The notes under the pieces: generated by a model
Databases searched by the model: none
Told to the model about the DNA's origin: nothing
What the model saw: only the letters and a program-made list of their open reading frames with translations
From: Acidimicrobiales bacterium
Lineage (GTDB): Bacteria > Actinomycetota > Acidimicrobiia > Acidimicrobiales > Palsa-688
Length of the DNA: 38,762 bases
NCBI GenBank assembly: GCA_050744165.1
Contig: JBOGGN010000242.1
Span: forward strand, 1 to 38,762
Direction: 5' to 3'
Program-made: the position numbers and the translations under genes
In this document: positions 10,630-38,762 of the stretch, piece after piece
Numbering within the stretch: the stretch's first letter is position 1
How the letters are laid out: every line of letters starts with the position of its first letter

Positions 10630-10729
10630 GCCGACCGAGGATAGTCGTGGCTCGCCCTTCAGGGTTCTCGGCCTGCTGGGAGCGGAAGTCGGAGGTGTTC
10701 GGTGCCGGTCACCTCTACGCTGACCGTCT

Positions 10730-11338
10730 GTGGTGCCGCGGGTGCTGGTTCTCGACAACTACGACAGCTTCGTTTACAACCTGGTTCAGTACTTGGGCGA
10801 GTTGGGCGCCGAGCCCCTGGTGTTCCGTCACGATGCCATCGGCCTAGATGCGGTGGCTGACCTGGGCCCCGATGCCGTGCTCGTCTCTCCTGGGCCCGGG
10901 CGGCCCGAGGATGCCGGGGTCAGCAACGACCTCATCGCGGCTATGGGCGCCGCGGGCACACCGCTGCTCGGCGTCTGCCTCGGTCACCAGTGCATCGGCC
11001 AGGTCTTCGGCGGGAGGGTCGTGCGGGCGGCGTCGGTCATGCACGGCAAGACGTCGATGGTCCACCACGACGGCCGGGGCGTCCTGTCGGGCCTGGCCAA
11101 TCCGTTTCGGGCTACCCGGTACCACTCGCTGGTGGTCGACCCCGCCTCCGTGCCCGCCGCCCTTGAGGTCTCGGCCTGGACCGACGACGGCACGGTGATG
11201 GGGCTGCGCCACCGTGAGTTTCCGATCGAGGGGGTCCAGTTCCACCCCGAATCGATCCTGACCGATGACGGCCACCGGTTGCTGGCCAACTGGTTGCACC
11301 TGGAAGCGCCCACACCGGGGACCGCGGCCTCCAGCTGA
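10730..11338 (+). CDS. trpG: Class-I glutamine amidotransferase: anthranilate synthase component II / aminodeoxychorismate synthase GATase subunit
   Basis: GTG start. Carries the GATase-1 catalytic triad context (LLGVCLGHQCIG with Cys, then HPESI). It sits in the conserved position between crgA and pknB. The trpG versus pabA choice is unresolved. Confidence 0.82.
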   Translation: MVPRVLVLDNYDSFVYNLVQYLGELGAEPLVFRHDAIGLDAVADLGPDAVLVSPGPGRPEDAGVSNDLIAAMGAAGTPLLGVCLGHQCIGQVFGGRVVRAASVMHGKTSMVHHDGRGVLSGLANPFRATRYHSLVVDPASVPAALEVSAWTDDGTVMGLRHREFPIEGVQFHPESILTDDGHRLLANWLHLEAPTPGTAASS

Positions 11339-11364
11339 GCCCAGAGCCGGCCAGACCCGTCAGG

Positions 11365-13494: not shown

Positions 13495-13520
13495 GTTTAT
13501 AAGCCTGTCACAACTTCGCC

Positions 13521-14978: not shown

Positions 14979-14985
14979 GGGGCAA

Positions 14986-16365: not shown

Positions 16366-16404
16366 GGCGTCACGGGGGCGCAGGGGGGGCGCCGGTTCAC
16401 GACG

Positions 16405-17703
16405 TCAGGGGGCAGGGACGGTGGTCGTCGTTGCCGGCGGTGGCACCGTGGTGGTGGTCGGCGGCAGCGTGGTGGTGGTGGTGGTCGTGGTCGCTTCGGC
16501 GGCGAGGCTCGCGACGTAGCTCTTGGCGGCGGGAACGGATGGTTCTTCTTTCCCGGAGCGCAGGTCGGGCAACCGTTCGGGCAGGACCTGGTTGGCGGCG
16601 GTGGCGGTGCGCTGGACGATGGTTGGCTGGAACCAAAGCAGGCCGCCAGGGCGGCCCTTGTAGATGGTGAGTTGGCCGTTGTCCAACCCGACGAAGTACG
16701 AGCCGCGGGCGTAGAACGCGATGGCGACGCCGGCGCCGGCGATCAGCAACACCAGGATGACGAAAAAACCTACGACCCGCCAGGTGACGGCGCGCTGGCG
16801 GGGCGGGGCGGGCGGGGTCTCCTTCGGTGGGGGGCCGACACGCCCCGACCAGCCGGTGGGGGGGGAGGGGGCGCTTTTTCCCGCTTCTTTTTCGGGGTGG
16901 GAAAATGCCTCGGGGATCGGTGTCGCCCGTCGCGTGGGGGGGTTGGCGGCCAGTGCCGCAGAGGCCGCCTGGGGCAGGTCGTTGTCGTCCACCACGTCGA
17001 CAATCACAACCGTGATGTTGTCGTTGCCGCCCCGATCTCGGGCTTCGGCGACCAGTTCCCGGGCCGCGTCCTTGGGGTTGGCCAGGCGGCGCATGACCCC
17101 CGCCAGCTGGTCGTCGTTGAGTTCACGGACCAGGCCGTCGGAGCACAGCAGGTAACGGTCGCCCTTCAGGGGCAGGACCTGGAGGAGATCCACCTTGACG
17201 TCGGAGTCGACGCCGAGCGCCCGGGTCAGGACGTGGCGCTGGGGGTGGATGGCGGCCTCCATCTCGGTCAGCTGGCCGTCGTCGACCAGCTCCTGGACCA
17301 GGGAATGGTCGGTGGTCAGCTGTTCCAGCTCGCCGTCGCGCAGCAGGTACACCCTCGAGTCGCCCACGTTGATGATCGCCAGGCGTTCCTCGTCGTCCTC
17401 GTCGACCAGGGCGATCGCCACCAACGTGGTGCCCATGCCGTGGAACTCGGGGTTGCCCAGGGCCCGCTCGAAAATCGACCGGTTCGCCTGGCGGGCCGCC
17501 GCCACCAGGCCCTGGGCGCCGCCATTGTGGCGGTAGGCGACCTCCAACGCTTCCACCGCCGTCAACGACGCCACCTCGCCCGCCGCGTGGCCGCCCATCC
17601 CGTCGGCGACCGCGAACAACTCCTCACCCACGAGCAACTGATCCTGATTCGACGTCCGCACCCGACCCACGTCGGTCGCCGAACCCGCCGACAGGCGGAT
17701 CAC
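16405..17703 (-). CDS. pstP: PP2C-family Ser/Thr phosphatase PstP with TM segment, extracellular domain and Thr-rich tail
   Basis: Carries PP2C motifs (FAVADGMGGHAAGEVAS, DGLV, DNITVVIV). A TM helix (VVGFFVILVLLIAGAGVAIAF) and an extracytoplasmic domain follow. The product ends in ATTTTTTTTLPPTTTTVPPPATTTTVPAP. Confidence 0.9.
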   Translation of the reverse strand: MIRLSAGSATDVGRVRTSNQDQLLVGEELFAVADGMGGHAAGEVASLTAVEALEVAYRHNGGAQGLVAAARQANRSIFERALGNPEFHGMGTTLVAIALVDEDDEERLAIINVGDSRVYLLRDGELEQLTTDHSLVQELVDDGQLTEMEAAIHPQRHVLTRALGVDSDVKVDLLQVLPLKGDRYLLCSDGLVRELNDDQLAGVMRRLANPKDAARELVAEARDRGGNDNITVVIVDVVDDNDLPQAASAALAANPPTRRATPIPEAFSHPEKEAGKSAPSPPTGWSGRVGPPPKETPPAPPRQRAVTWRVVGFFVILVLLIAGAGVAIAFYARGSYFVGLDNGQLTIYKGRPGGLLWFQPTIVQRTATAANQVLPERLPDLRSGKEEPSVPAAKSYVASLAAEATTTTTTTTLPPTTTTVPPPATTTTVPAP

Positions 17704-18221
17704 GCCGCCACCTCCAGCACCGACCGGCCCACCTGCAGGCGGTCCCCGGGGCCGAGGGGGATGGGGCTGGTAACGGGGCGGTCGTTCACGAAGGTGCCGT
17801 TGGTCGATCCCAGATCCTCCACGTAGAGCGACCCGTCGCGGCGGAACACTCGGGCGTGGAGGGTCGACACGAAGGTGTCGTCGGGCAGGGAGATGCCGCA
17901 GCCCAACGCCCGGCCGAGGGTCAGCTCCTCACCCAGGGGAAAGCTCTGGCCGGCTCGGTCCGGGGGCTCGAGGACGACCAACCGGGCCAAACCTGTCGCC
18001 GCCCCGCGACCCCCGGTCCCTGGGGCCCAGCTCCCAGCCGGACCACGCCCCGCCTTCGCCGTCTGGCGGGGCGAAGGTTGCGGGGACGGGGACGCCACTG
18101 CAACCTGCACCGCTCTCGGTTCCCGGAGCTCCACCCAGACCGCCCGGATGACCCGAAAAAAGAACAGGTAGAGCAGGCCCAGGAACACCGCCTTCAAGGC
18201 CGTCAACAGGGACTCGGGCAT
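17700..18221 (-). CDS. fhaB: FHA domain protein FhaB/FipA (N-terminal TM helix plus C-terminal FHA)
   Basis: Has an N-terminal TM helix and a C-terminal FHA domain (GR...DD..VS..HA.......YVEDLGSTNGTFVN). The stop overlaps the pstP start. Confidence 0.8.
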   Translation of the reverse strand: MPESLLTALKAVFLGLLYLFFFRVIRAVWVELREPRAVQVAVASPSPQPSPRQTAKAGRGPAGSWAPGTGGRGAATGLARLVVLEPPDRAGQSFPLGEELTLGRALGCGISLPDDTFVSTLHARVFRRDGSLYVEDLGSTNGTFVNDRPVTSPIPLGPGDRLQVGRSVLEVAA

Positions 18222-18234
18222 GGCGCCAGCCCCC

Positions 18235-18888
18235 CTATGGGGCTTCGAACCTCATGTGGGTGGCGCCGACGGTGATGTCGTCACCGTCGACCAACCGGTG
18301 GCTGTGGACCCCGATCCCATTCACCTTGGTGCCGTTGGTACTACCCAGGTCGACCAGCACGTAGCCGCCGTCGTTGGTGGGGCGCACCTCCACGTGGCGA
18401 CGGCTGCAGTTGGCGTCGGTCAGCACCACGTCACACTCGGGGAGCCGCCCGATCGTGAGCGAGGTGCTGCCGAGGGGGTGGCGGCTGCCGTCGGGCAGGA
18501 CCAGCCGGGCCGGCGCCCCAGTCGTGGCCCGAACCTCGCCGACCACCTCAAGGATCCCCGCCGACAGCTGGTCGTCGCTGGTCAACTCCACCTCGACGGG
18601 ACCGAGGAACACGTAGTTCTCGACCCGTGCGTGCTCCTTGGCCACCCCGACCAACTCGCTCACCAGCTCCGACTCGAACGGCTCGAACCGGGACCGGTCG
18701 GCAGGGCTGACCACCACGGTGAAGTAGTTCGGGGTCAGAGTGCCTCGGGGAGCCACGGTGCGCAACAGGTCCATCTCCCGGGTGAGGCGGCGCCCGATCT
18801 CAACCGGCTGCAAGCCGCTACGGAACGCCTTGGCGAAGGCGCCCTCAACGAGTCGCTCGAGCCGTCGCTCGAACTGCTGCAGTCCCAT
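18235..18888 (-). CDS. fhaA: FhaA (DUF3662 N-domain plus C-terminal FHA domain)
   Basis: The N-terminus MGLQQFERRLERLVEGAFAKAF is typical of FhaA. The C-terminal FHA reads TIGRLPECDVVLTD..SRRHVEV......VLVDLGSTNGTKVN. Confidence 0.8.
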   Translation of the reverse strand: MGLQQFERRLERLVEGAFAKAFRSGLQPVEIGRRLTREMDLLRTVAPRGTLTPNYFTVVVSPADRSRFEPFESELVSELVGVAKEHARVENYVFLGPVEVELTSDDQLSAGILEVVGEVRATTGAPARLVLPDGSRHPLGSTSLTIGRLPECDVVLTDANCSRRHVEVRPTNDGGYVLVDLGSTNGTKVNGIGVHSHRLVDGDDITVGATHMRFEAP

Positions 18889-27500: not shown

Positions 27501-29737
27501 CGGTTGACCCAGTGATGATCACTTCTTTGGTGGACAACATCTACGGCAACCTGGCCACCCTGCCCGGTTCAACCTGCGGCACCCTCATCGGCATCACCCT
27601 TCCGCCGGGGGCGACCACGCCGCCGTGCACGTTCACCGGAGCCTTCAACGGAAGGGCGCCTGCCTCCCAGACCGACACCGTCACGGTCACCGGCGTCGAC
27701 TCCCACGGCATCACCGTCACCGCCACGGCCATGGCGACGGTCACCCTGACCCCGGTCCTGCCGACCATCAGTGTCACCAAGGCGGCCAACCCGCCCAGCC
27801 TGCCGGCGCCCGGAGGCACGTTCACCTTCACCGTCCAAGTCCACAACCCCAACACGGTGGACCCGATCACCATCACCTCGCTGGTGGACAACATCTACGG
27901 TGACCTCTCCACCCGGGCCGGCTCAACCTGCGGCGCCCTGATCGGCGTCACCCTGGCACCCGGCGCCACCTCCTCGCCGTGCACCTTCACCGGCCCCTTC
28001 ACCGGGGTGTCCGGAGCCACCCAGACCGACACCGTCACTGTGACCGGCATGGACAGCAACGGCAACAAGGCCACCGCCACCGCCAACGCCACCGTCGCCC
28101 TGACACCGGGGCTGATGCCGGTGATCAGCGTCAGCAAGGCGGCCAACCCCCTAACCCTGCCGGCGCCCGGCGGCACCTTCACCTTCACGGTCCAGGTGAC
28201 CAATCCGAGCACGACCGACCCGATCACGATCACCTCGTTGGTGGACAACATCTACGGTGACCTGTCCACCCGGGCCGGGTCGACCTGCGGCGCCCTGATC
28301 GGCGTCACCCTGGCTCCCGGCGCCACCTCTTCGCCGTGCACCTTCACCGGCCCCTTCACCGGGGTGTCCGGGGCCAGCCAGACCGACACCGTCACGGTGA
28401 CCGGCATGGACAGCAATGGCAACACGGCCACCGCAACGGCCATGGCCACCGTCTCCCTGACGCCGGCCATCACGCCCGAGATCAGCGTGACCAAGGCGGC
28501 CAGCCCGGCCACCCTGCCGGCACCGGGTGGGACGTTCACCTTCACGGTGCAGGTCCACAACCCGAGCACCGTCGATCCGGTGACGATCACCTCGCTGGTG
28601 GACAACATCTACGGCGACCTCTCGACGATCACCGGCTCGACCTGCGGCGCCCTGATCGGCGTCACCCTGGCTCCTGGCGGCACGTCGGCGCCGTGTACCT
28701 TCCCGGGTTCGTTCACGGGCAACTCGGGTGCCAGCCAGACCGACACGGTCACGGTGACCGGCAAAGACAGCAACGGCAACACGGTCACCGCTACCGCCAA
28801 CGCCACCGTGTCGCTGACGCCCGGTCCCACGCCTCAGATCAGCGTCAGCAAAACGGCCGACCCGCTGAGCAAGCCAGCCCCCGGCGGAACATTCACCTTC
28901 ACAGTGGAGGTGACCAACCCAAGCACGACCGACCCGATCACCATCACCTCGCTGGTGGACAACATCTACGGCGACCTGACGAAGATCTCCGGCTCCACCT
29001 GTGGCGCCCTGATCGGCGTGACACTGGCACCCGGCGCCTCCTCGGCCCCGTGCACCTTCCCGGGCTCGTTCACGGGCAAGTCGGGCGACAGCCAGACGGA
29101 CACGGTGACCGCCACCGGCAAGGACACCAACGGCACGACAGTGACCGCGACGGCCATGGCGACCGTCACGCTGACCCCGCCGGCGCCCACGACCACCACG
29201 TCGACCTCGACGACCTCGACGACCTCGACCACGGCGACGTCCGCCCCGCCCGCGACGCCGGTGATCGCGGTCACCAAGGCCGCCAACCCCATCAGCCTTT
29301 CGGCGCCAGGCGGTACGTTCATCTTCACGGTGGTCGTGTCCAACCCGAGCACGACCGTCCCGGTCAAGATCACCTCGCTGGTGGACAACATCTACGGCGA
29401 CCTGACGAAGATCTCCGGCTCGACCTGCGGAACCCTGATCGGCGTCACGCTCAGCCCCGGCCAGAGCTCCTCGCCGTGCAGCTTCCCGGGGAGTTTCACC
29501 GGATCGGGTGGCGATACCCAGACCGACACGGTGACCGTCACCGGGGTCAACCCGGCTAACCCGTCCGGTACCCCGGTCACCGCCACCGCCAAGGCGACGG
29601 TCAGCATCATCGCCGCCACGTCGACGCCACTCGCCCTGACCGGCTTGGACGACCGGCGACCGCTGACGATCGGCTTTGGGCTCATCGCCGCCGGCCTGCT
29701 GGTTCTGGCGCTGTGCTGGCGCCGGCGCCTCAACTGA
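21542..29737 (+). CDS. Giant (2731 aa) cell-surface repeat protein: signal peptide, N-terminal domain, 16 Ig-like repeats, 6 DUF11-like repeats, LALTG sortase-type anchor
   Basis: The ATG at 21542 has an AAGGAG SD. The signal peptide is ALGLAIAVVPFVVTIPDAFA. Sixteen ~108-aa repeats match ...PTGTITF.(V/L)FGP.N..CTG.P.FTS...V.GNG.Y.S..FT....GTY.FVA.YSGD.NN......CG..NE.V.V. Six ~122-aa repeats match TFTFTV.V.NPSTVDPITITSLVDNIYGDL....STCG.LIGVTLAPG....CTF.G.F.G.....QTDTVTVTG.D..G. A Thr/Ser linker follows. The C-terminus reads LALTG-LDDRRPLTIG-FGLIAAGLLVLALCW-RRRLN. Confidence 0.85.
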   Translation: MGHEGQHRRRSSVARRTLQGALGLAIAVVPFVVTIPDAFAGVGFGVVPTFPSVVTVGQTGLPANLTIQNTSTTPDNASNVTLSTIDLVPACGTTFGTAPINDCPIANADPGVFTLSPTGTGQAGTACAGTTFTITTVDPATGQVSFSPSTPVVLQPPGTGPGGALAECVIDFTFTVNMGPTHVDANGQVDQLGFASGTNTLGHTGSGAGSSAVTVNLATLGITTSATSTATVGGGITDTATVSAAAPPGPAPTGTITFTAFTNSTCSGAPAFTSNAITVTGTGNYTSTPPFVTTAPGSVFWIASYSGDVSNAPVATHCGDAGETTTVNQAVPTIVTAASTTATIGGPISDSAVLANGLNPTGTITFTAFGPGNATCTAPAAFTSAPLAVAGNGTYMSGPFTPTTPGTYLWVASYSGDTNNAAVATPCGDMGETSTVNKATPAIVTTASGSGPVGSVISDSAVLSGGVDTPTGTITFNVFGPDNASCTGAPVFTSTATVNGNGTYSSSMFTTTAAGTYLFVASYSGDANNNAVASACGAANESVTITKASPAIATTPSPSVTAGGLVSDSATLSSGVNPTGTITFTLFGPGNPTCTGAAIFTSTASVNAGNGVYNSAAFTTTTPGTYNWVASYSGDANNNAVASTCASETVVVTQAHPTIMTQASASVPVGGTITDTATLAGGVSPTGTITFSIFAPGNPTCAGAPVATSMVPVTGNGNYVSAPFTTTAVGTYMFVVIYSGDTANASATSACGAANEAVTTTQATPTIATTPSVSVPVGGAVSDSATLANGLSPTGSITFTLFGPGNPTCTGAQVFTSNPIPVTGNGTYTSNTFTATMAGSYNWIATYSGDANNHSVASTCASETVVVTTTTPKIVTNASLTVPVGGTISDTATLSNGVNPTGTITFDVFGPNDATCSTVPAFTSVVSVTSGNGTYSSGPFTAVMAGTYRFVAMYSGDANNAAVTTMCNDPNESVVVTTVTPSLSTTASASVAVSGTVSDTAILSGGSNPTGTITFELFGPVAGCTGAPIFTATKPVTGDGAYSSGTFTPTAPGTYNFEASYSGDANNNAIPLTACGAAGENVTVTPATPAIVTMASASVAAGGTISDTATLTGGDAPTGTITFTVYGPGNTTCAGTGVASHTVAVTGDGSYASGSFPAAIAGTYRFIAAYSGDANNSAESTGCNDANESVVVTPAAPTLVTHASSTVAAGGTIQDTATLSGGASPMGTITITLFGPNNAACTGTPIQSTTDPVNGDGDYTSTPFVVNAAGTYQYVAVYGGDANNAGATSACGAANESVVVTPAAPTIATQASAPVAVGNPITDVATLSGGDNPTGTITFNVFGPHNATCTGAPVFSSTMAVTGDGNYTSNPFTPTMAGTYRFVDSYSGDANNAPTASACGAANESVAVGVASPTIVTTASAPVVAGGNISDIAVLSGGVTPSGTITFDVFGPNNATCTGAPLFTSTVPVAGNGSYASAPFTTTLAGTYQFVASYSGDANNGAVTSACDAANESVVVAKAGPAIATQASAPVTVGGAISDSATLSGGTGPSGTITFQVFGPNNATCTGAAAFTSSVTVAGNGTYASMSFTPTQPGTYRFVATYGGDANNAAAGPTSCGDPAESTVVSPGATTIVTKVSGSTTVGGTITDTATLAGGVNPTGTITFQVFGPNNATCTGIPAFTSTVPVTGNGNYTSATFTVPGAGTYGFVATYSGDTANSPAGPTACSDPNETTTATKVSPTISTMASPTGTVGGAITDTATLTGGFNPTGTITFQVFGPNNTTCTGAPAATSTAPVSGSGNYTSAPFSPTAPGSYQFVATYGGDANNNAAGPTACNDPAETATVTPSAVTFSTTASPSADVGQPIFDTADLTGSGTPTGTITYNLFGPNNATCTGAPAFTTTVNVNGSGMYTSASFTPTAAGTYEWVDTYSGDATTAPAGPTPCNDAAESVVVLPTPQIAVTKAANPTSEPEPGGNFTFTVTVSNPSTVDPVMITSLVDNIYGNLATLPGSTCGTLIGITLPPGATTPPCTFTGAFNGRAPASQTDTVTVTGVDSHGITVTATAMATVTLTPVLPTISVTKAANPPSLPAPGGTFTFTVQVHNPNTVDPITITSLVDNIYGDLSTRAGSTCGALIGVTLAPGATSSPCTFTGPFTGVSGATQTDTVTVTGMDSNGNKATATANATVALTPGLMPVISVSKAANPLTLPAPGGTFTFTVQVTNPSTTDPITITSLVDNIYGDLSTRAGSTCGALIGVTLAPGATSSPCTFTGPFTGVSGASQTDTVTVTGMDSNGNTATATAMATVSLTPAITPEISVTKAASPATLPAPGGTFTFTVQVHNPSTVDPVTITSLVDNIYGDLSTITGSTCGALIGVTLAPGGTSAPCTFPGSFTGNSGASQTDTVTVTGKDSNGNTVTATANATVSLTPGPTPQISVSKTADPLSKPAPGGTFTFTVEVTNPSTTDPITITSLVDNIYGDLTKISGSTCGALIGVTLAPGASSAPCTFPGSFTGKSGDSQTDTVTATGKDTNGTTVTATAMATVTLTPPAPTTTTSTSTTSTTSTTATSAPPATPVIAVTKAANPISLSAPGGTFIFTVVVSNPSTTVPVKITSLVDNIYGDLTKISGSTCGTLIGVTLSPGQSSSPCSFPGSFTGSGGDTQTDTVTVTGVNPANPSGTPVTATAKATVSIIAATSTPLALTGLDDRRPLTIGFGLIAAGLLVLALCWRRRLN
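22190..27400 (+). repeat. Coding tandem array: 16 diverged ~325-bp units (Ig-like domain repeats) inside the giant gene
   Basis: The unit containing TGTITF and YSGDANN recurs 16 times with ~50-70% aa identity. Antisense ORFs with ~330-bp periodicity in the six-frame track are echoes of this array. Confidence 0.85.
27401..29610 (+). repeat. Coding tandem array: 6 ~365-bp units (DUF11-like conserved repeat domain), two copies near-identical
   Basis: ITSLVDNIYGDL occurs six times. The units starting near 27830 and 28190 are almost identical at protein level (ITITSLVDNIYGDLSTRAGSTCGALIGVTLAPGATSSPCTFTGPFTGVSGA). A Thr/Ser linker at about 29180-29260 separates units 5 and 6. Confidence 0.8.
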
Positions 29738-29993: not shown

Positions 29994-32906
29994 CTACTGC
30001 GAGCGGCGCGGTAGTCGCCGCCGCCGGCGCCAGGTGACGCCCAGGCTGAGCAGGCCGGCCAGGATGAGCATGCCACCGGCGATGGTCGGGTCCTGGATCC
30101 GTGCCCCGGTGAGCGACAGCGAGGAGGTCGCGGTCGTCGTCGTGGTCCCCGAGCCAGTGGGCGCTGCGGTCACGGTGATCGAGACCTGCGCCCTCAGCGA
30201 GGCATCGGCCGTGCTGGCAACGATCGTGTGCTGGCCGGGCGCGGTGGCCGCGGGAATGACAACGGTGGCCGCAAAGTTCCCGAGAGAGTTTGCCGTCGCC
30301 ATTCCGAGCGACACCGGGCTGCTGAGAAGGTCCATCTGGAGTTCGCTGCCGGCCGGGAAGCCGCTGCCGGTGACCATGGTCGGCTGGCCAGCCGGCACGG
30401 AATTGGGGTTCACCTGAACCGTCGGAGTACCTGTGGTGGTGGTGGTTGCCCCCAGCGTGCTCGACGTTGTCGAAGAGCTCGTGGTCGAGGATCTCGTCGT
30501 GGTCGTTGTCGACCCGACTGTCGAGGATGTGGTTGACCCCACTGTCGTGGTTGTCGTCGGGGCAGTGGTGGTGCTGCTGGTCGTGCTGCTCGAGGTCGTG
30601 CTGCTCGAGGTGGTGGTCGCACTCACCGTGACCGTCTCGGCGGCCTCACCGCAGGCGGTGGGCCCAGCCGGGAGGGAGTCTGGGTCGCCGTCGTAGGACG
30701 CCAGCCACTGATAGGTACCAACAGCGGTCGAAATGAACGGCTCTGAGGTGTAGCTGCCGTCACCATTGACTGTCACCGTGGTGCTGAAGGCGGCGGTCCC
30801 GGTGCAGGCGGCGTCACCGGGGCCGAAAAGGTTGAAGGTGATTGTCCCGGTCGGCGAAAAGCCGCCAGTGAGGGCAGCCGTGTCGCTCACCGAGCCGCCG
30901 ACGGTCACTGATGCCGAGGCATGAGTGGAGATCGAGGTTGAGGCCCTGATCACGCTGAGGTGTTCGTTGACCGCCCCGCAGGCACTGGTCACGGGGTTGT
31001 TGTTGCTGTCCCCGCTGTAGACGGCGGTCCACAGGTAGTCACCCACCTTTTCGGTGGCGAAGGAATCCGAGTCGTACGAGCCGTTGCCGTTGACCCGCAC
31101 GACCGCAGTGAACGCTGGCGTCGCAGAGCAGGTTTGGTCGTTCGGACCGAACAGGCTGAAGGTGATCGATCCGGTGGGGATGCGACCGCCCGACAGCGCG
31201 GCCGAGTCGCTGACCGATCCACCCACCGCGACCGTCGGGGACGCCATCGTCGCGATTGTCGGCGTGGCCATCGCCAGCACCGTGGTCGTCGTGGGTCCTG
31301 TGGTGGTTGTGGTCGGGCCGGTGGTGGTTGTGGTCGGGCCGGTGGTGGTTGTCGTCGTCGCCGGGAGCGTGGTGGTGGTGGTCGAGGTGGTTGTGGTTGT
31401 TGGGCCGGTTGTGGTTGTGGTGGTTGCCGGGACCGTGGTCGTGGTGGTGGTGGTGCTCGTAGAGGTCGTCGTCGTACTGGTACTGCTTGACGTGGTGGTC
31501 GTGGAGCTGACGATGACCGTCTCGGCGGCGTCGCCGCAGGTGGTGGGCCCTGCTGGGTTAGAGTTGGCGTCGCCGCTGTACGACGCCACCCATTCGTACG
31601 TGCCGGCAGCGGTGGTGGTGAAGAGGCTCGACATGTAGTTGCCGTCGCCGTTGACGGACACCGTGTTGCTGAACGTCACGGTCCCGCTGCAGGTCGGGTC
31701 GCCCGGGCCAAAGAGGTCGAACGTGATGGTTGCGGAGGGCGAGAAACCTCCGGTGAGGGTGGCGGTGTCGCTGATAGAGCCGCCGACGGTGACCGAGGCT
31801 GATGCGTGCGTAGAGATGGTGGTGTTGGCTTTGGTCACTGTCACCGATTCATTCGCCGCGTTGCAGGCGCTGGTCACCGGGTTGTTGTTGCCGTCACCGC
31901 TGTAAGCCGCCGTCCATTGGTAGTTGCCGGTCGACACGGCCACGAAGCTCTCCGAGGAGTAGGTGCCGTTGCCGGAGACCGGCACCATGGCGGTAAAGGC
32001 CGGCGTCGCCGAGCAGTTGGCGTCGTCCGGGCCGAAGAGAATAAAGGTGATCGTGCCGGTGGGCGTGTTCCCGTCCAGGAGAGAGGCGGTGTCACTCACC
32101 GATCCGCCCACGGCCACCGATGCCGAGGCCGCGGTCGTCAGAATGGGCGTCGACGCAGCCGGCGATACCGTCACCTTCTCGTTGCTGTCGAGACAGTTGA
32201 TGTCCGACACAGCCAGGTTGTTACCGTCGCCGCTGTAGGACGCCGTCCACACGTAGGTACCGGTTGTCGTCGGGAAAAAGGGAGCCGACGGGTACATGGC
32301 GTTACCCAGATTCACGGGCACCGAGGTGGTGAAGCTCGGCGCAGTTTGGGCTTGGCAGGCGGCCACGGAGGCCCATAGGTCAAAGGTGATCGTGCCGGTG
32401 GGGCTGACACCCCCGGCCAGTTTGGCGCTGTCGTCGATCGAGCCGCCCACGGCAACGCCGGCCGACGCGGTGGTGGTGAGCACCGGCGCCACTTGGCCCA
32501 CGATCGTCGATTCGGGAGCGTCCGAACACGAGGTCGGTCCGACCGGATTGTTGTTGCCGTCACCGCTGTAGGTGACCTGCCACCGGTAGGTGCCTGCCTG
32601 GCTGGTGGTGAAGCTGGTTGAGTCGTAACTGCCATCGCCCGAGACCGGCACCATCGAGGTGAACGGCGGCGTACCAGCGCAGGTGGAGTTGTCCGGACCA
32701 AATAAGTCGAAAGTCAGCGTGCCCGTCGGCGCGGATCCACCAGACAGATCGATGACATCGAAGATTGCAAGTCCTACCGTCGTGTCGGGGGAGGCGACCG
32801 ATGAAATCGAGGGCGTCGCCAATGCCAACGCCGGCGTCGCAACCGTCCCCACACAGAGGCACGCGAGCGCGACGGCCCCAATGACGCCCCCGAGCCTCCT
32901 GAGCAC
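29994..32906 (-). CDS. 970-aa cell-surface repeat protein, paralog of the giant protein: 6 Ig-like repeats, Thr-rich linkers, terminal Ig-like domain, LSLTG anchor signal
   Basis: The signal peptide is MLRRLGGVIGAVALACLCVGTVATPALALA. The same PTGTITF...YSGDGNN repeat family occurs six times. There are two long Thr/Ser/Gly-Pro linkers. The C-terminus reads LSLTG-ARIQDPTIAGG-MLILAGLLSLGVTW-RRRRRLPRRSQ. Only 36 bp separate it from the upstream gene on the same strand. Confidence 0.85.
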   Translation of the reverse strand: MLRRLGGVIGAVALACLCVGTVATPALALATPSISSVASPDTTVGLAIFDVIDLSGGSAPTGTLTFDLFGPDNSTCAGTPPFTSMVPVSGDGSYDSTSFTTSQAGTYRWQVTYSGDGNNNPVGPTSCSDAPESTIVGQVAPVLTTTASAGVAVGGSIDDSAKLAGGVSPTGTITFDLWASVAACQAQTAPSFTTSVPVNLGNAMYPSAPFFPTTTGTYVWTASYSGDGNNLAVSDINCLDSNEKVTVSPAASTPILTTAASASVAVGGSVSDTASLLDGNTPTGTITFILFGPDDANCSATPAFTAMVPVSGNGTYSSESFVAVSTGNYQWTAAYSGDGNNNPVTSACNAANESVTVTKANTTISTHASASVTVGGSISDTATLTGGFSPSATITFDLFGPGDPTCSGTVTFSNTVSVNGDGNYMSSLFTTTAAGTYEWVASYSGDANSNPAGPTTCGDAAETVIVSSTTTTSSSTSTTTTSTSTTTTTTTVPATTTTTTGPTTTTTSTTTTTLPATTTTTTGPTTTTTGPTTTTTGPTTTTVLAMATPTIATMASPTVAVGGSVSDSAALSGGRIPTGSITFSLFGPNDQTCSATPAFTAVVRVNGNGSYDSDSFATEKVGDYLWTAVYSGDSNNNPVTSACGAVNEHLSVIRASTSISTHASASVTVGGSVSDTAALTGGFSPTGTITFNLFGPGDAACTGTAAFSTTVTVNGDGSYTSEPFISTAVGTYQWLASYDGDPDSLPAGPTACGEAAETVTVSATTTSSSTTSSSTTSSTTTAPTTTTTVGSTTSSTVGSTTTTTRSSTTSSSTTSSTLGATTTTTGTPTVQVNPNSVPAGQPTMVTGSGFPAGSELQMDLLSSPVSLGMATANSLGNFAATVVIPAATAPGQHTIVASTADASLRAQVSITVTAAPTGSGTTTTTATSSLSLTGARIQDPTIAGGMLILAGLLSLGVTWRRRRRLPRRSQ
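31290..31352. repeat. 21-bp tandem repeat (2 perfect + 1 degenerate copy) encoding a GPTTTTT linker repeat in the 970-aa surface protein gene
   Basis: The unit ggtcgggccggtggtggttgt lies at 31311-31331 and 31332-31352, with a degenerate copy at 31290-31310. Confidence 0.75.
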
Positions 32907-32942: not shown

Positions 32943-33905
32943 TTAGTAGGCGTCGATGTCGCCGGTCGTCCCGATTGCAATATGGGGCCCGGCCCCCGGT
33001 TGGAGCCATTGGAGCAACGCAATCAGGTCGGATGAAGGAAGGCTTACACAACCGTTGGTGGGCCTACCTAACGATACGTGGAGAAAAATAGCCGAACCCC
33101 TCCCAGGAACGACCGGGCTGGCGTTGTATTCGATAACCGCGAAGTAGTCATATGCCGGCGCTTCGGTCCACAAGGCCTCGCTCCCGCCTCCGAAGGGATT
33201 CTCGGTGCTGCAGGAACCAACGTGCTGGAAGGTGTTGTACTCCGGCGAGGATGGCTCCTCGTCCCACCAGTCGCCGCAGACCAGGACGTGGTAGCTGCCG
33301 TGAACACCAGGGTTGGGGTCGATGCCGTAGAACGTCGAGCCGATGCCGAACAGCCCGATCGGGGAGGTGCCGTCGCCTTCAATCTTGTCGCTGCTCAGTC
33401 CGTGGAGGCCGACCCAGCCTGACCACGGTCCCCCTGCCACGGTCCAGCAGGTCCCGGTCCGTTGCCACAAGGTCACGACCGCAGTGGTGGCCGCGGTGGA
33501 ACTGGCCACGACGGTCACCAACTGGCTGCCGCCGCCCGTGGCCTTCATCTGATTGGCGGGCGTGGCGGTGCAGGCCGCGGCGGTGGTGCTGACAGGGGCG
33601 GCGATCGTGGTCTGCACGCGCTGGGCAGTGGTCGTAGTCGCGGCCTGCGCCGTCGTCGGGGCGGCGAGGCTTGTCGTGCTGGCGATCGCGGGCACCGTCG
33701 AGGAGGTGGTGGTCGTTGCCGTCGTCACCGAGGTGGTGGCGGCCAGCGTGGTGCTCGATTGCAGGTGGGCAGCACCGGAGGTCCTCGCGCCACCACATGC
33801 GGCGGTCGCCAGCAGGGTCGCCACCGCGGCCCAAGCTCTCGTCCGGCGACGGCGTGCTGCCGGCGGCGTTTCCCACGGGCGAGGGGCGGTGGGTGACCGG
33901 TTCAT
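32943..33905 (-). CDS. L,D-transpeptidase (YkuD-fold) family lipoprotein with Thr-rich linker
   Basis: The lipobox is LLATAAC. After a Thr/Ala-rich linker comes a YkuD-like core: GDGTSPIGLFGI, then FLHVS...GRPTNGCVSLPSSDLIALLQWL (compare ...H.S....SHGC[VI][RN][LV] in known Ldt). Asn replaces the His usually preceding the catalytic Cys. Confidence 0.6.
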   Translation of the reverse strand: MNRSPTAPRPWETPPAARRRRTRAWAAVATLLATAACGGARTSGAAHLQSSTTLAATTSVTTATTTTSSTVPAIASTTSLAAPTTAQAATTTTAQRVQTTIAAPVSTTAAACTATPANQMKATGGGSQLVTVVASSTAATTAVVTLWQRTGTCWTVAGGPWSGWVGLHGLSSDKIEGDGTSPIGLFGIGSTFYGIDPNPGVHGSYHVLVCGDWWDEEPSSPEYNTFQHVGSCSTENPFGGGSEALWTEAPAYDYFAVIEYNASPVVPGRGSAIFLHVSLGRPTNGCVSLPSSDLIALLQWLQPGAGPHIAIGTTGDIDAY

Positions 33906-34758
33906 GCAGCTGCCCGGACCTTATCGTGGTGGCGTGTTCGGCCCACGACGCCCCCGTGGCACCGCCGCGGGTCTGGTCGCGTTGGTTCTCGTGGCCGCCG
34001 GATGCGGGGGACCCGTGGCTTCGAAGGAGCTGCGCGGCACCACCACCTTGCCTCGAGGCACGACCTCTACCGCCTCCATGGTCCTCGGCGACACCACAAC
34101 CTCAAGCACCGTGCCCGCCAGTTCGTCGACCACCCGAGCGGCGACCTCGACGACCAGCACCACCGCTGTGGCCTCGTCGAGCTTCGTCGGAACCGAGGCG
34201 ACGATCACCGCCGCCGACGTGCCCTACACCTGGCGGTCCGGATGCCCCGTAGGACCGACCCAACTCCGGATGCTGCACCTCAGTTATTGGGGCTTCGACA
34301 ACCAGCCCCACGTTGGCACCATGGTGGTCAACGCTGCCGTGGTAGCCGACGTCTTCAAGGTTTTCTCGACCCTGTTCGCGGAACATTTCCCGATTCAGCA
34401 GATGCAGCCCGAGGACGCCTACCAGGGCAGCGACCCGGCCTCGATGGTCGCCGATAACACCTCGGGTTTCAACTGCCGCAATGCCGTGGTGCCCCCAGGT
34501 CAACCAACGTCGTGGTCAGTTCACGCCTACGGGGAAGCAATCGACGTCAACACCGTTCAGAATCCCTACGTCGAGGGTGGCACCGTGATGCCGCCCGGTG
34601 GGGCCGCCTACCTCAACCGCTCCGCTTACCGCCCCGGGATGGCGGTACCGGGCGGCCAGCTCGTCGCCGCCTTCGCCTCGGTGGGCTGGCAATGGGGCGG
34701 CCGCTGGGCCTCGACAGGAACGCCTGACTACCAGCACTTCTCGCTCACCGGCGGCTGA
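33904..34758 (+). CDS. Peptidase M15 (VanY / D-Ala-D-Ala carboxypeptidase-like, LAS metallopeptidase) lipoprotein
   Basis: Has a lipoprotein signal (LVALVLVAAGCGG) and a Thr/Ser linker. An H-x6-D zinc motif (SVHAYGEAIDVN) and a terminal His (DYQHFS) are present. The ATG at 33904 overlaps the divergent Ldt start on the opposite strand. An alternative GTG lies at 33934. Confidence 0.68.
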   Translation: MQLPGPYRGGVFGPRRPRGTAAGLVALVLVAAGCGGPVASKELRGTTTLPRGTTSTASMVLGDTTTSSTVPASSSTTRAATSTTSTTAVASSSFVGTEATITAADVPYTWRSGCPVGPTQLRMLHLSYWGFDNQPHVGTMVVNAAVVADVFKVFSTLFAEHFPIQQMQPEDAYQGSDPASMVADNTSGFNCRNAVVPPGQPTSWSVHAYGEAIDVNTVQNPYVEGGTVMPPGGAAYLNRSAYRPGMAVPGGQLVAAFASVGWQWGGRWASTGTPDYQHFSLTGG

Positions 34759-35368: not shown

Positions 35369-35719
35369 TTAGCTGCACCTTTCGTCGGACTCGGTGTACT
35401 GGGTCTTCCCTACGTTGACCACCATGGGGCCGGTACAGCTCTTGCCCGAGGCACTGGCGTTCAGGGTGGCGGTGATCATGGTCCCGCTGGAGGTGAACCC
35501 GAGGCAATCGACGATGCCCGGCGCTTGGCCGAAGCAGCTGATCGATCCCTTGTAGTCGACGTTGTGGGCGTGCAACACCTGAACGACGTCGGCGGCAGTG
35601 GCCGTGCGCACGACCGATTTACTAGGGCCCTTGGCGCTCTTGCTGCCGCAACCGCCGGCCAGCAGGGTGACGACGGCGGCGGCGCAAAGGCCGAGGCTTA
35701 CCTGGTGCGACACAGACAT
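35369..35719 (-). CDS. Small hypothetical Cys-rich lipoprotein (116 aa)
   Basis: The ATG at 35719 is Met66 of the track ORF. The lipobox is LLAGGCGS, followed by four further Cys (SCFG...DCLG...SCTG...ERCS). Confidence 0.5.
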   Translation of the reverse strand: MSVSHQVSLGLCAAAVVTLLAGGCGSKSAKGPSKSVVRTATAADVVQVLHAHNVDYKGSISCFGQAPGIVDCLGFTSSGTMITATLNASASGKSCTGPMVVNVGKTQYTESDERCS

Positions 35720-35816
35720 GTGGAGATAGTCGCCGATTCTCTCGCCCGGGTCCAGCCCCGGGCCCCCGGCCCCCGCTAGGCCTGGCATCAGCCGCGGGCC
35801 GCTAGGGTCGCCGAGG

Positions 35817-36839
35817 ATGGCATTGGGTACCCGGCCGGCACGCCCGACTCGCCGTCGCAGACGGCCCTGGTTGTTCTTCGCCCTGCTGGCCACGGTACTC
35901 GTCCTCGTTGTCAACGCCGCCCTGTCGGCTCGCTCGCCCGGTCCCGTCCGCCAGCAGGCGGAGCAGTCTTACCTGGACCAGGTCCTGCCGGGGGTGCAGC
36001 AGTCGAGTCAGCAAGGCTTGGATGTCGGCAACCTCTTGAGCCAGGCACTGACCCTGTCCCCCACGACGCTCGCCAATCACCTGGACGAGGACTTTTCCCA
36101 GGCCCAACAGACTTTGGCGGTGGTGGAAAAATTGAACCCCCCGACCGCCATGAAGACACCTCAGTCGTTGCTGGTGTCGGCGTTGGCTCTTCGCGCGTCG
36201 GGCACCAAGGCACTGGGCCAGGCGATCACCACCGCACTCAGCAATCAGCCCCAGGTGTCGGCGGTCAGCGCCCTGGCCAGCGCGGGACTCGACCTCGAGG
36301 CCTCCGATCGCGCCTACGCCCTTTTCCAGCAGGCGGTACCGGCCTCCGGTGGCATCGTCCCCAAGTCGGTGTGGGTCGCCGACACCTCGACCTACACGAC
36401 GCCGATGCTCTCGGTCTTCGTGAACAGCCTCCGTGCCCATACCAGCCTGACTCCCGTCGTGGCGGTGGCGGTCGTGGCGGTGACCACCGACCCAGCACCG
36501 GTGAATCTCCTCAACGGGGTCCAGATCCTGCCCGTCGCCGGTACCCTCAGTCTGCAGGTCGTGGTTGCCAACACCGGCAACCAGCAGGAGCCGAACCTGA
36601 CGGTCATGGCCAGCATCGCGCCGTCGCAGAGCGGCCCGACGCAGAGCGTCCGCAACTTCATCGGTCTCAGTCCGGGCGAATCCAAAACGGTGGGTCTCGG
36701 CCCCCTCCGGATGATCCCCGGCCAGGCCACCACGCTCACCGCGACTGTCACGCCGAGCGTCTCGACGACCGCCACAACGGTTGGGGGCCAATCGGCCATA
36801 CCGGACAACAGCCAGGTCATCATGCTCGAAATGCAGTGA
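35817..36839 (+). CDS. Hypothetical N-terminally membrane-anchored secreted protein
   Basis: Has an Arg-rich N-region plus a TM/signal anchor (RRRRRPWLFFALLATVLVLVVNAALSA), followed by a Gln/Ala-rich helical region and a Thr/Val-rich C-terminal domain. No family was recognised. Confidence 0.55.
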   Translation: MALGTRPARPTRRRRRPWLFFALLATVLVLVVNAALSARSPGPVRQQAEQSYLDQVLPGVQQSSQQGLDVGNLLSQALTLSPTTLANHLDEDFSQAQQTLAVVEKLNPPTAMKTPQSLLVSALALRASGTKALGQAITTALSNQPQVSAVSALASAGLDLEASDRAYALFQQAVPASGGIVPKSVWVADTSTYTTPMLSVFVNSLRAHTSLTPVVAVAVVAVTTDPAPVNLLNGVQILPVAGTLSLQVVVANTGNQQEPNLTVMASIAPSQSGPTQSVRNFIGLSPGESKTVGLGPLRMIPGQATTLTATVTPSVSTTATTVGGQSAIPDNSQVIMLEMQ

Positions 36840-36854
36840 GCTAAGGGATTCGCG

Positions 36855-36931
36855 TCACGGGCACCGTGAGATTTCGTCACCTGGTGCGTTGTCTGTGTAA
36901 CGTTGGTGCGCCTGCCGGGAACGATTCCCGG
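36855..36931. promoter_or_regulatory. Two palindromic candidate operators in the lower-GC region upstream of the mini-ORF operon
   Basis: TCACGGgcaCCGTGA lies at 36855-36869 and CCGGGAacgatTCCCGG at 36915-36931. Both sit in a 135-bp lower-GC stretch (…ttgtctgtgtaacgttgg…) between the stop at 36839 and the ATG at 36976. Confidence 0.35.
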
Positions 36932-36975
36932 CAAAGCGGCCATATCGACCAGGGTCGAGGGCGGACGGAGTAGCT

Positions 36976-37128
36976 ATGTACGGAAAGACAGCGGTCACCG
37001 GAGTAGCAGGGTCGGGGATACTGGCCGTGACCGGTCGCCCCGTCTGGGGATTGGTCCTCTTCGGCGCAGTGCTGATCATGCTCGGCCTATTGCTGTTGCG
37101 CGTAGTGAGCGTTCGGAGCTACCGCTGA
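36976..37128 (+). CDS. 50-aa mini-protein consisting essentially of a sortase-type C-terminal sorting signal (LAVTG + TM + basic tail)
   Basis: It is not in the ORF track because it is under 60 aa. The ATG at 36976 has a GGAG SD 5 nt upstream. The product is MYGKTAVTGVAGSGILAVTGRPVWGLVLFGAVLIMLGLLLLRVVSVRSYR, with a TGA stop at 37126-37128. The ATG of the next gene lies 7 nt further on. Confidence 0.45.
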   Translation: MYGKTAVTGVAGSGILAVTGRPVWGLVLFGAVLIMLGLLLLRVVSVRSYR

Positions 37129-37134
37129 GCCAAG

Positions 37135-37710
37135 ATGCCGGTCATCCACGACGCTCCGTCGTTTCCGGACCAATCCGCTCCGGAGGACCGACCGACCGCG
37201 CTCGACCGGCCGGTCGCCATCGCTGTTTTCGCAGTGGCGGCGGCATTGCTGATCTGGGAGGCCCGCTTCCGAGTGATCGAGGCTTCCGTCTCGGCATGGA
37301 CGATCCGGTTGTTCCGGGTCCGACCGGCGCGCTCCCTCGGTCCGGACGTGATCTTTCCCCTCGGCCACCGCTGGGTCGGGTTCGCGCTGACCTTGTCCTG
37401 CACCTCGGCGCTGCTCATGGTGCCGTTCTTCGTGATCGCCGGAGTGCTCCTGCTCTTCCGGAGGGTCCCGCGGCGCCGTGCGCTAGTTGCGTTGGCGGTG
37501 GCGGCCGCCGTCCTGTTTGCCATCAACCAGCTGCGCCTAGTCGTGATCGCGGCGTCGATGCTCTGGTGGGGCTTCGAGACGGGCTACCAGCGCAGCCACG
37601 TGCTGCTCGGAACCACACTCAGCACTATCGGCGTGATCATCGGAATCATCATCTTCGTCTGGATGCTGGTCGAGGATCCGAGTCGTCGTACTCGACGGAC
37701 CGCCTCATGA
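37135..37710 (+). CDS. Small polytopic membrane protein (5-6 TM); possible exosortase/archaeosortase-family core (inference)
   Basis: The 191-aa product has hydrophobic helices at about aa 27-40, 80-107, 116-130, 135-146 and 156-178. A Cys lies in a TM (LTLSCTSAL, C89). An N-x-x-R (AINQLRL, N131/R134) sits about 45 aa downstream. A His-containing segment (RSHVLLGT) follows. This arrangement recalls the Cys/Arg active-site spacing of exosortases. It is translationally coupled to the mini-ORF. Confidence 0.55.
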   Translation: MPVIHDAPSFPDQSAPEDRPTALDRPVAIAVFAVAAALLIWEARFRVIEASVSAWTIRLFRVRPARSLGPDVIFPLGHRWVGFALTLSCTSALLMVPFFVIAGVLLLFRRVPRRRALVALAVAAAVLFAINQLRLVVIAASMLWWGFETGYQRSHVLLGTTLSTIGVIIGIIIFVWMLVEDPSRRTRRTAS

Positions 37711-37783
37711 AAGCCCTTCTCTTGCTGTCCCGTAACAACCAACACAACGTCAGCCCAGCTAGTTCCAGCCCTTTGGAGGAGTT

Positions 37784-38665
37784 ATGAGTTCAGGTCGCCT
37801 TCGGCTCTCACTTGGCAAGTTTGCCGGGGCCGGACTGATCGCAACGGTGGTCTTGGGGATGGCAGCAGCCTCGCCTGCCTTCGCCGACACATCGACTGCC
37901 ACTGCCAACGCAGCCACACTGCAACTCGGGTCATCGACCCTCCTCACGACCGGGCAGTGCACCAGCAGCAACCCCGGGTCTGGGGCAAATGACACCTGCG
38001 GCCAGACACCTAGCCTCAGCCTCCTCGGCACCCAGACGGCGATCGAGGCGGGTCTGCTGGTTCAGCAGACCGTCGCCCGGGCCGACGGCACCTCGGCCGC
38101 GTGCGCTGGACTGGTCGGCACCGGCGGGACCATCCAGATCGGCGCCGGGGGAACCTGCACCGTCACCGGCGCGGCTCCCGGCGGTGTCCAGCTGAACTTG
38201 GGCTTGGCCACGGTGCACGCTGACGCCATCCTGGCCGAATGCACCGCTTCGTCGACCGGGACTCCCACCGCTTCGGTGCAGTTGGTCAACGCCACGATTA
38301 GCCTGCTCGGCGGCGGCACCACCCCCATCATCTCGTCGCCGCCCGCGAACGACACGGCCGTCGACCTGGGTGCCCTGGTCACCGCCACCCTCAACAAGCA
38401 GCCCGCCACGACCCCGGCACCGCCGGCCGGCTCCATCAGTACCTCCGCCCTCGACGTCAGCGTCCTGAGTGGCGTGCTCGGCACACCGCCACTGGTGCAC
38501 CTGACGGTCGGCACCGTCTCCTGCGGTCCCAACGCCGTTACGCCGCCGACGCCCGCCTTCCCGCTGGAGGGCGCTCCTATCGCGGCCGGAATCTTCCTGG
38601 TCGCCGGGTACATCGGGTATCGCTTCTGGTGGACGCCCCGGCGGCGGGCCCAGACTCTGGTCTAG
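37784..38665 (+). CDS. Secreted Thr/Gly/Ala-rich protein with C-terminal tripartite tail (short motif + TM helix + RRR), a candidate dedicated sorting substrate
   Basis: A strong GGAGGAG SD lies 6 nt upstream. The signal peptide is LIATVVLGMAAASPAFA. The mature region is Cys-containing and low in complexity. The C-terminus reads ...TPAFPLEG-APIAAGIFLVAGYIGYRFWW-TPRRRAQTLV. Confidence 0.7.
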   Translation: MSSGRLRLSLGKFAGAGLIATVVLGMAAASPAFADTSTATANAATLQLGSSTLLTTGQCTSSNPGSGANDTCGQTPSLSLLGTQTAIEAGLLVQQTVARADGTSAACAGLVGTGGTIQIGAGGTCTVTGAAPGGVQLNLGLATVHADAILAECTASSTGTPTASVQLVNATISLLGGGTTPIISSPPANDTAVDLGALVTATLNKQPATTPAPPAGSISTSALDVSVLSGVLGTPPLVHLTVGTVSCGPNAVTPPTPAFPLEGAPIAAGIFLVAGYIGYRFWWTPRRRAQTLV

Positions 38666-38762
38666 GCGGCCACCCGCCCCAGGCGTCGGTCGCTTGCGGG
38701 TTGGTTCCGCAACGTCAGCTAACTGCGCCAAACTGGTAGACGGCCGAGCCGGATTCCCGGCT

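Follow-up and report, generated by a model that had tools for sequence, protein, structure and literature searches.

The DNA analysed here (JBOGGN010000242.1; hereafter the window) is a whole contig, 38,762 bp long, from a metagenome-assembled genome (MAG) of Acidimicrobiales, and it carries a 50-codon open reading frame (ORF) at positions 36976-37128. We are confident that this ORF is a genuine gene for a single-pass membrane micro-protein and that it belongs to the core of a surface cassette found in actinobacteria. We are as confident that this cassette has four components: the LAxTG peptide encoded by the small gene, a mini-exosortase, a PgaC/IcaA-like synthase of glycosyltransferase family 2 (GT2), and secreted proteins with PVV-CTERM-like signals. 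Judged from its sequence, the small protein is a sortase-type anchoring signal without cargo, having neither a signal peptide nor a passenger domain. What is new is this arrangement, in which a tripartite C-terminal sorting signal stands alone inside an exosortase/GT2 cassette.

The peptide belongs to a large family of uniform design. A single-sequence search with the window peptide found only one relative, 92% identical; contigs that carry homologues of the downstream gene all have a 50-67-aa gene of like design at the same place. A profile of 40 members, run against 1.84 billion cluster representatives, returned at least 810 matches at E ≤1e-3, each standing for a cluster at 50% identity. 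Nearly all of the best 150 of these are 39-96 aa long and align from residue 1, and an earlier word-based profile search matched proteins of exclusively 35-86 aa. The family extends from Acidimicrobiia MAGs to cultured isolates of Leifsonia, Promicromonospora and Cellulosimicrobium, among them Leifsonia aquatica (P0084 locus), Promicromonospora sp. NPDC019610 and Cellulosimicrobium aquatile (WP_076405100.1). Its members start with Met-Tyr and continue through an uncharged, Gly-rich stalk, an LAxTG motif, one transmembrane (TM) helix and an Arg-rich tail, and across the 40 aligned sequences M1, Y2, L16, A17, T19, G20, G37, L40, R42 and R47 are invariant or nearly so. The Met-Tyr start is found in 186 of 215 small members, most of the others having V/L-Y, which reflects alternative start codons (TTG in locus L015, for example), or mis-called starts. 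In small members the segment before the motif averages 31% Gly and 0.2 Asp or Glu residues. The motif itself is LAxTG in 178 of the 186 members that start with Met-Tyr, the remainder having LAxSG (three), LPxTG (three), MAxTG (one) or LVxTG (one). From the Arg-rich tail and the positive-inside rule, the predicted topology is N-out/C-in, with LAVTG at the outer face of the membrane. Genes of this kind are labelled 'hypothetical protein', as NCBI labels the one in the window, or 'LPXTG cell wall anchor domain-containing protein'.

An earlier note on this DNA, made from the sequence alone, had proposed that the ORF is a free-standing gene with its own Shine-Dalgarno sequence and not the 3' remnant of a larger one, and that its product is little more than an LAxTG/TM/basic sorting signal. 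The ORF is present, its peptide is exactly as quoted there, the Shine-Dalgarno sequence lies 5 nt before the ATG, and both the peptide sequence and the design of the family agree with the description of the product. Failure of related genomes to maintain the small frame had been named beforehand as the outcome that would tell against the gene. The frame and the length are in fact kept: the window and its relatives L001, L002 and L003/L014 all have 50 codons with zero indels, their differences are biased to third codon positions, and the dN/dS ratios of 0.15-0.47 denote purifying selection. Because of this conservation, together with the 810 clusters and the matches that start at residue 1, both a chance ORF and the decayed 3' end of a larger gene are ruled out. 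One locus of the set does carry a damaged copy. Upstream of the exosortase gene at L021:3885-4007 (+) the small gene is cut to MYGTTVELATRAGMVRRES, with both ends kept and the LAxTG motif and TM helix deleted; either this copy has decayed or the assembly is at fault.

The GGAG that serves the small gene has counterparts, as GGAG or GAG, before the ATG in four related loci (L001, L002, L003 and L013). The 136-nt spacer that separates the small gene from the preceding one has, as the earlier note had said, a lower GC content (down to 0.55-0.61, against 0.68 window-wide). The promoter-like features also claimed for this region are unconfirmed, since a sigma-70 consensus scan of 35500-38762 gave no sites; an Rfam search of the upstream region gave no match. 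The spacer holds a conserved box that is the same in L002, reads GTAAACGTTG in L003 and is degenerate in L001 and L013, and that is a possible promoter, operator or -10-region element. The preceding gene (35817-36839, +) encodes a 340-aa protein that begins with an Arg-rich TM anchor and contains a region faintly resembling CARDB, and it is syntenic only in the clade of the window (L002, L003, L013 and L014).

Downstream, the earlier note had pointed to an adjacent membrane enzyme. The neighbour is real, and it belongs to a family that had gone unrecognised: with 32.2 bits against TIGR04178, above the cut-off of 23, it is a member of the exosortase/archaeosortase family. It scores 86 bits with XrtP, 83 with XrtS and 79.4 with XrtR, all under the respective cut-offs (200, 145 and 150), and a Leifsonia homologue reaches 205.8 bits with XrtR (cut-off 150). 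Four residues are invariant in 15 homologues, namely Cys89 (37399-37401), Asn131, Arg134 (37534-37536) and His155 (37597-37599), and the protein is predicted to be a Cys/Arg transpeptidase-type enzyme. An AlphaFold2 (AF2) model with a pLDDT of 79.9 has four TM helices, an amphipathic helix and a three-stranded sheet just before Cys89; from the positive-inside rule we infer an active site at the outer leaflet. The Haloferax archaeosortase ArtA has conserved Cys173, Arg214 and Arg253, all essential (PMC9263693). A Foldseek search of the model against the PDB gave nothing at E ≤1e-3, and a profile of the enzyme found only one weak match among PDB sequences (E 0.13).

In the window (37126-37137) only TGA-GCC-AAG separates the small gene from the exosortase gene, and both lie in one reading frame; the same holds for L002 and L003. 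The possibility that they are a single interrupted gene was considered and rejected: over ten measured pairs the gap runs from -11 to +67 nt and the relative frames vary, so that these are two genes. Since other loci use other frames or overlaps, the shared frame probably reflects coupling and not programmed read-through. A natural fusion does exist in P0145 (292 aa), in which the peptide (MYNTGG...GLAFTGFP-TM-RR) is joined by a linker of ~70 aa, rich in Arg, Gly and Asp, to an entire mini-exosortase. This may be a Rosetta-stone fusion in the true sense, or a stop codon may have been lost. Its AF2 model makes the segment equivalent to the TM of the small peptide helical and gives the enzyme domain a pLDDT above 90.

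Two retrievals establish how the small gene is placed among its neighbours. The first, made through the exosortase, gave 17 distinct loci. The earlier note had suggested looking for similar small ORFs beside similar membrane proteins, and 15 of the 17 carry an intact one, directly upstream of the exosortase gene in 14; in L019 the small gene is 2.7 kb from the exosortase and immediately 5' of the cargo gene, and in the MYGSKGGG clade too it directly precedes the cargo gene. The other two loci are L021, with its internally deleted remnant, and the short contig L010, in which the small gene was not found. The second retrieval went through the small gene alone, which avoids exosortase bias, using a hand-written degenerate DNA pattern that recovers about half of the known members and has no match in 100 shuffles of the window (the DNA pattern for the peptide signature matches the window itself once). 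It returned 113 metagenomic stretches, 81 with true family members and 70 unique peptides, and for 63 of these 70 unique small genes the retrieved DNA includes one or more components of the cassette. Of the 21 loci whose flanks measure 1.5 kb or more on each side, both exosortase and GT2 occur in 13, GT2 only in seven, exosortase only in one and neither in none; among the eight flanked by at least 3 kb on both sides the corresponding numbers are 7, 1, 0 and 0. GT2 is therefore within 1.5 kb in 20 of the 21 well-flanked loci, and the exosortase within 1.5 kb in 14 of 21 and within 3 kb in 7 of 8.

The GT2 is a PgaC/IcaA-like synthase, corresponding to the NCBI 'XrtP-associated glycosyltransferase' (NF053846; 522 bits in L006 and 675 in L030, cut-off 520), and frequent extras of the cassette are a UDP-N-acetylglucosamine (UDP-GlcNAc) 2-epimerase and an AT3/SGNH acyltransferase. 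The clade of the window is the exception. The window has no GT2 in the 37 kb upstream of the cassette, and the contig ends 97 nt past the cargo gene; the related locus L015 does have a GT2, at a distance of a few more kb, and in both L013 and L015 WecB and GT2 follow. In relatives within this clade the cargo gene is followed by a conserved product longer than 400 aa without a Pfam hit (L001:5621-6865, L002:2257-2829, L013:7100-8731 and L014:7513-9141), with a WecB epimerase coming next in L013. Because the contig ends before the position of this protein, the cassette in the window is probably truncated. At L007:3-2300 and L009:2-1942 (+), the gene directly upstream of the small gene ends, as read from its sequence, like an EAL-type cyclic di-GMP (c-di-GMP) phosphodiesterase (...EIKCDMGQGYFFARPVP). 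Should that reading hold, the cassette may be controlled by c-di-GMP, as other exopolysaccharide synthases of the GT2 family are.

The last gene of the window encodes a secreted protein that is the probable exosortase cargo. It is conserved in 11 loci; its homologues match models of choice-of-anchor P and G proteins, those in L006 and L008 reaching 58.7 bits with choice_anch_P (cut-off 27), and that in L004 matches PVV_CTERM at 21.9 bits. Compared across 11 homologues, the tail keeps an Arg cluster and a single invariant Pro, within a conserved P-I/V-A, where the TM segment begins. A search of the protein against PDB sequences found no match. In Promicromonospora sp. NPDC019610 (L012:8085-12183, -), three cadherin/Big_9 proteins end in PPVPMVAPG[LM]AVAG...RRRR, and they adjoin a cluster of exosortase, GT2, small gene and WsfD-like gene; this tail looks like the exosortase (PVV-CTERM-like) signal of that lineage. 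The exosortase is in this way supplied with conventional proline-motif clients in the same operons, which implies that LAxTG is a second, different signal; the earlier note had overlooked the proline-type signal in the operon of the window.

Table 1. Positions of the small gene, its parts and its neighbours in the window
Feature	Position	Strand	Details
Conserved upstream box	36897..36906	+	GTAACGTTGG, palindrome-containing; 70 nt 5' of the small-gene ATG
Shine-Dalgarno sequence	36967..36970	+	GGAG, 5-nt spacer to the small-gene ATG
Small gene	36976..37128	+	ATG...TGA, 50 aa: MYGKTAVTGVAGSGILAVTGRPVWGLVLFGAVLIMLGLLLLRVVSVRSYR; NCBI MGH9125190.1, locus tag ACRDZ8_10760
Predicted extracytoplasmic stalk	36976..37020	+	Met1-Tyr2 and 13 Gly-rich residues; single charge (Lys4)
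LAVTG pentapeptide, residues 16-20	37021..37035	+	L16, A17 and G20 invariant, T19 at least 90% (40 aligned sequences)
Transmembrane helix Val23-Leu41	37042..37098	+	19 hydrophobic residues, from sequence; Gly37 invariant
Basic cytoplasmic tail	37099..37125	+	Arg42, Arg47, Arg50; R42 and R47 at least 90% conserved
Mini-exosortase	37135..37710	+	191 aa, next gene, ACRDZ8_10765; 6 nt after the small-gene stop
Secreted choice-of-anchor-G/P-like protein (probable cargo)	37784..38665	+	293 aa; signal peptide ...PAFA|DTS
C-terminal proline-type tripartite signal of the cargo protein	38558..38662	+	FPLEGAPIAAG-TM-RRR; 11 homologues compared
Ig-repeat surface protein, ~2,700 aa	21320..29737	+	Ends ...PLALTGLDDRRPLTIGFGLIAAGLLVLALCWRRRLN; LALTG-TM-RRR tail (LALTG...RRRLN) at 29630..29737
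Ig-repeat surface protein, 970 aa	29994..32906	-	Ends ...SLSLTGARIQDPTIAGGMLILAGLLSLGVTWRRRRRLPRRSQ; LSLTG-TM-RRRRR tail at 29994..30119

Which enzyme reads the LAxTG motif? LAxTG is the motif of class E sortases (PMC5148588). Models of sortase-dependent tails catch several members of the family: P0086 passes TIGR01167 (LPXTG_anchor) at 18.1 bits against a cut-off of 15.9, and P0088 and P0090 pass the tail model 'LAVTG sortase-dependent surface protein'. The relatives in L008 and L006 score 15.3 and 13.7 bits with TIGR01167, with which the window peptide has no match at E ≤1. We take the LPxTG variants in the family for the kind of exchange that a sortase-type motif should show, and LAxTG is kept in loci that have no exosortase within 4.6-9 kb (L030/L096, L089 and L094). 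Regular adjacency to an exosortase gene, by which an exosortase substrate may be recognised, is found (15 of 17 loci by the first retrieval, 14 of 21 within 1.5 kb by the second). The window peptide has no proline-type motif before its TM helix, its single Pro following LAVTG (RPVW), and it is therefore not the expected kind of exosortase signal; as far as we know, Pro is present in every named signal of exosortases and archaeosortases (PEP, PGF, VPXXXP, IPTL, VPLPA and PVV). Most probably LAxTG would be cleaved by a class E sortase encoded elsewhere, and less probably by the neighbouring exosortase. A class E sortase-like gene is present at L026:2862-3878 (-), where it scores 128.6 bits with NF033747 (cut-off 160; E 2.9e-37) and lies convergent with, and immediately beside, a small gene-GT2-WecB cassette that has no exosortase.

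We suggest, tentatively and at something short of even chances, that the peptide is a cleavable wall-anchor adaptor for the product of the cassette. A transpeptidase, by the assignment just given, would cut between Thr19 and Gly20 and transfer the 19-residue stalk to peptidoglycan. The invariant Met-Tyr end of the stalk would be the joining point for the cassette product, which in the window would be the cargo protein released from its exosortase acyl-intermediate and in most relatives, instead or in addition, the glycan made by the GT2. Such an adaptor would account for every invariant position, that is M1-Y2, L-A-x-T-G, the TM Gly and the Arg tail, as well as for the adjacency of the small gene to enzyme, synthase and cargo alike. 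Each of the three roles offered in the earlier note (sortase decoy or regulator, minimal wall-attached peptide, primer substrate) may still apply, but the synteny favours a role as wall anchor or primer-adaptor over that of a pure decoy. The idea can be taken further, and there we are more doubtful: a stalk without a passenger may couple two unrelated transpeptidase/synthase pathways, its Met-Tyr end accepting either exosortase acyl-linked cargo or a GT2-primed glycan, and a class E sortase grafting the conjugate onto peptidoglycan through LAxTG.

Several points weigh against the adaptor. The cleavage at T|G, the N-out topology, the identity of the enzyme and the nature of the attached moiety are all inferred. 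Lys4 is not conserved, leaving the alpha-amine and the Tyr hydroxyl as the sole conserved candidates for a nucleophile. A sortase lies nearby in only one of 134 loci (L026), and there is none among the ORFs of the 38.8-kb window, including the pknB-trpG-crgA site, at which Streptomyces has srtE1 and srtE2. The AF2 model of P0145 leaves residues 1-30, the LAFTG motif among them, at a pLDDT below 50, and hence lends no support to LAxTG docking anywhere. Finally, the data fit a glycan-primer and a protein-acceptor version of the adaptor alike.

The peptide might instead remain uncleaved, as an accessory subunit or pseudo-substrate: a small bitopic protein that would serve to stabilise, gate or regulate the GT2, the exosortase or both, with LAxTG acting as a plug or decoy. 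IcaD and PgaD are small membrane partners of GT2 polysaccharide synthases, which often need such a partner, and SafA is a partner of an actinobacterial sortase; they resemble the peptide in being small membrane proteins encoded beside a synthase or sorting enzyme. It is the PgaC/IcaA-like GT2 that is the most constant neighbour of the small gene (20 of 21 loci), the coupling of the genes suggests stoichiometric production, the P0145 fusion would be compatible with a permanent subunit, and the EAL-like c-di-GMP genes lie upstream in L007 and L009. The known partners, however, have no sorting motif, and the peptide shows no detectable sequence similarity to them (none to IcaD, PgaD or SafA in Pfam or NCBIfam at E ≤1). 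An uncleaved subunit would moreover leave the invariant L-A-x-T-G and Met-Tyr unexplained while the TM residues vary, and the peptide persists in the clade of the window, where no GT2 is nearby. We regard this reading as rather unlikely.

It is also unlikely, in our estimate, that the peptide is a dedicated donor substrate of the adjacent exosortase, which would cleave LAxTG and move the 19-residue Met-Tyr...LAVT to lipid, glycan or medium, the peptide product itself being functional. Such a donor would have the tripartite architecture that the peptide has. Its gene would be expected beside that of its enzyme, which is the pattern from which Haft assigns targets to the sorting enzymes of dedicated systems (10.1101/2023.06.07.544157); here the peptide gene stands directly upstream and often appears translationally coupled (-11 to +8 nt), the two are fused in P0145, and the window has no sortase to do the cutting. 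The motif is the difficulty. LAxTG has no Pro, unlike the named exosortase signals as we know them, and the same operons already supply proline-motif tails; it persists where there is no exosortase within the 4.6-9 kb noted above, it varies to LPxTG in some members, and AF2 does not place it confidently on P0145. As for a non-functional ORF, whether arising by chance, by decay of a 3' end or as a mere leader upstream ORF for the exosortase, we give it next to no probability: the ORF is short, and it shares the frame of the exosortase in the window, L002 and L003, with TGA and two codons between, but the purifying selection, the 50 codons free of indels and the breadth of the family, whose best matches nearly all align from residue 1, argue otherwise, and the gene varies by locus in its frame relation to the exosortase and occurs away from any exosortase.

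How does the peptide compare with systems already described? The closest curated family is NF058583, 'LAXTG motif-containing small protein' (LAXTG_small_WW), a profile of ~54 aa, to positions 9-49 of which residues 8-47 of the window peptide align. The peptide has the small size and the LAxTG followed by a TM helix that define the family (50 aa, TM 23-41). Its score is 17.8 bits (E 0.002), the cut-off being 65, while close relatives reach 19-27 and P0088 and P0090 reach 64.7 and 62.4; the motif is followed by RPVWG in the window peptide and by DYAWW in P0088 and P0090. An alignment nearly from end to end with a score below the cut-off indicates that the window peptide is homologous to, and lies outside, the curated family. 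NF058583 is a narrow 'exception' model of a sister clade and carries no function.

With the substrates of class E sortases (Kattke et al. 2016, PMC5148588) the peptide shares LAxTG, a hydrophobic helix and a basic extreme C-terminus. It differs from them, as does its whole family, in having no Sec signal peptide or passenger domain and only 15 residues before the motif, and the small gene is tied genetically to an exosortase and a GT2, not to a sortase, and encodes an invariant Met-Tyr N-terminus. The neighbouring enzyme shares its family and its conserved Cys and Arg with the exosortase/archaeosortase systems (PEP-CTERM/XrtA and PGF-CTERM/ArtA). As in the XrtP system (NF012139, with the GT2 NF053846 and the PVV-CTERM choice-of-anchor G protein NF051874), the GT2 of relatives reach the NF053846 cut-off and the cargo tails are PVV-like. 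The differences are that the window enzyme falls under the XrtP, XrtR and XrtS cut-offs and that the motif of the small peptide has no proline.

In pilus assembly in Gram-positive bacteria, a pilus sortase joins the subunits, with the housekeeping sortase anchoring the base pilin in the wall. The mechanism proposed here would be alike as a relay of two transpeptidases, in which one enzyme loads the anchor unit and a second fixes it to peptidoglycan through an LPxTG-type signal. The anchor here would be a 19-residue peptide and not a folded pilin, and the first enzyme an exosortase or a glycan synthase. A full-text literature search returned nothing relevant on small LAXTG peptides, on exosortases together with LAXTG, on XrtP, XrtR or XrtS, on choice-of-anchor proteins or on NF058583.

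The window also carries two giant surface proteins whose tails, LALTG...RRRLN and LSLTG...RRRRR, had been likened in the earlier note to the small peptide. Both tails exist and share the pentapeptide, TM helix and Arg cluster with it; in the giant proteins, motif and helix are set further apart, by a charged spacer of 7-10 residues against 2-3 in the small peptide. The two genes are convergent and encode Big_3_5 immunoglobulin-like (Ig-like) repeats, the larger protein having 14 matched stretches; its DNA repeats in tandem between 22562 and 29179, with lengths of 324, 327 and 357 nt. After them come a YkuD L,D-transpeptidase (32943-33905, -) and an M15 D-Ala-D-Ala carboxypeptidase-like ORF (33553-34758, +). 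The minus strand at 10321-18888 holds the conserved actinobacterial cluster of FhaA, FhaB, a PP2C phosphatase, RodA/FtsW, a penicillin-binding protein and the PASTA kinase PknB, and beside it are a TrpG-like amidotransferase (10730-11338, +) and crgA (10321-10758, -). Far from the cassette, at 1884-4675 (+), an MBOAT O-acyltransferase is followed by a DUF459/SGNH protein, which together look like a glycan or peptidoglycan O-acetylation pair.

To our knowledge, the attachment partner of bacterial exosortase substrates has not been established, and the role of exosortases in Gram-positive bacteria is unstudied. A family of small anchoring peptides encoded in exosortase/GT2 cassettes provides a concrete candidate for the missing exosortase acceptor or anchor. 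It is more general than the window alone could have revealed to the author of the earlier note, and the curated NF058583 catches only a narrow clade of it. With members in cultured Leifsonia, Promicromonospora and Cellulosimicrobium, the mechanism is open to test in cultured Micrococcales. If the coupling stalk is true, the peptide would be the first defined exosortase acceptor in a monoderm bacterium and would mean that a polysaccharide made by a synthase can be fixed to the cell wall by way of a peptide.

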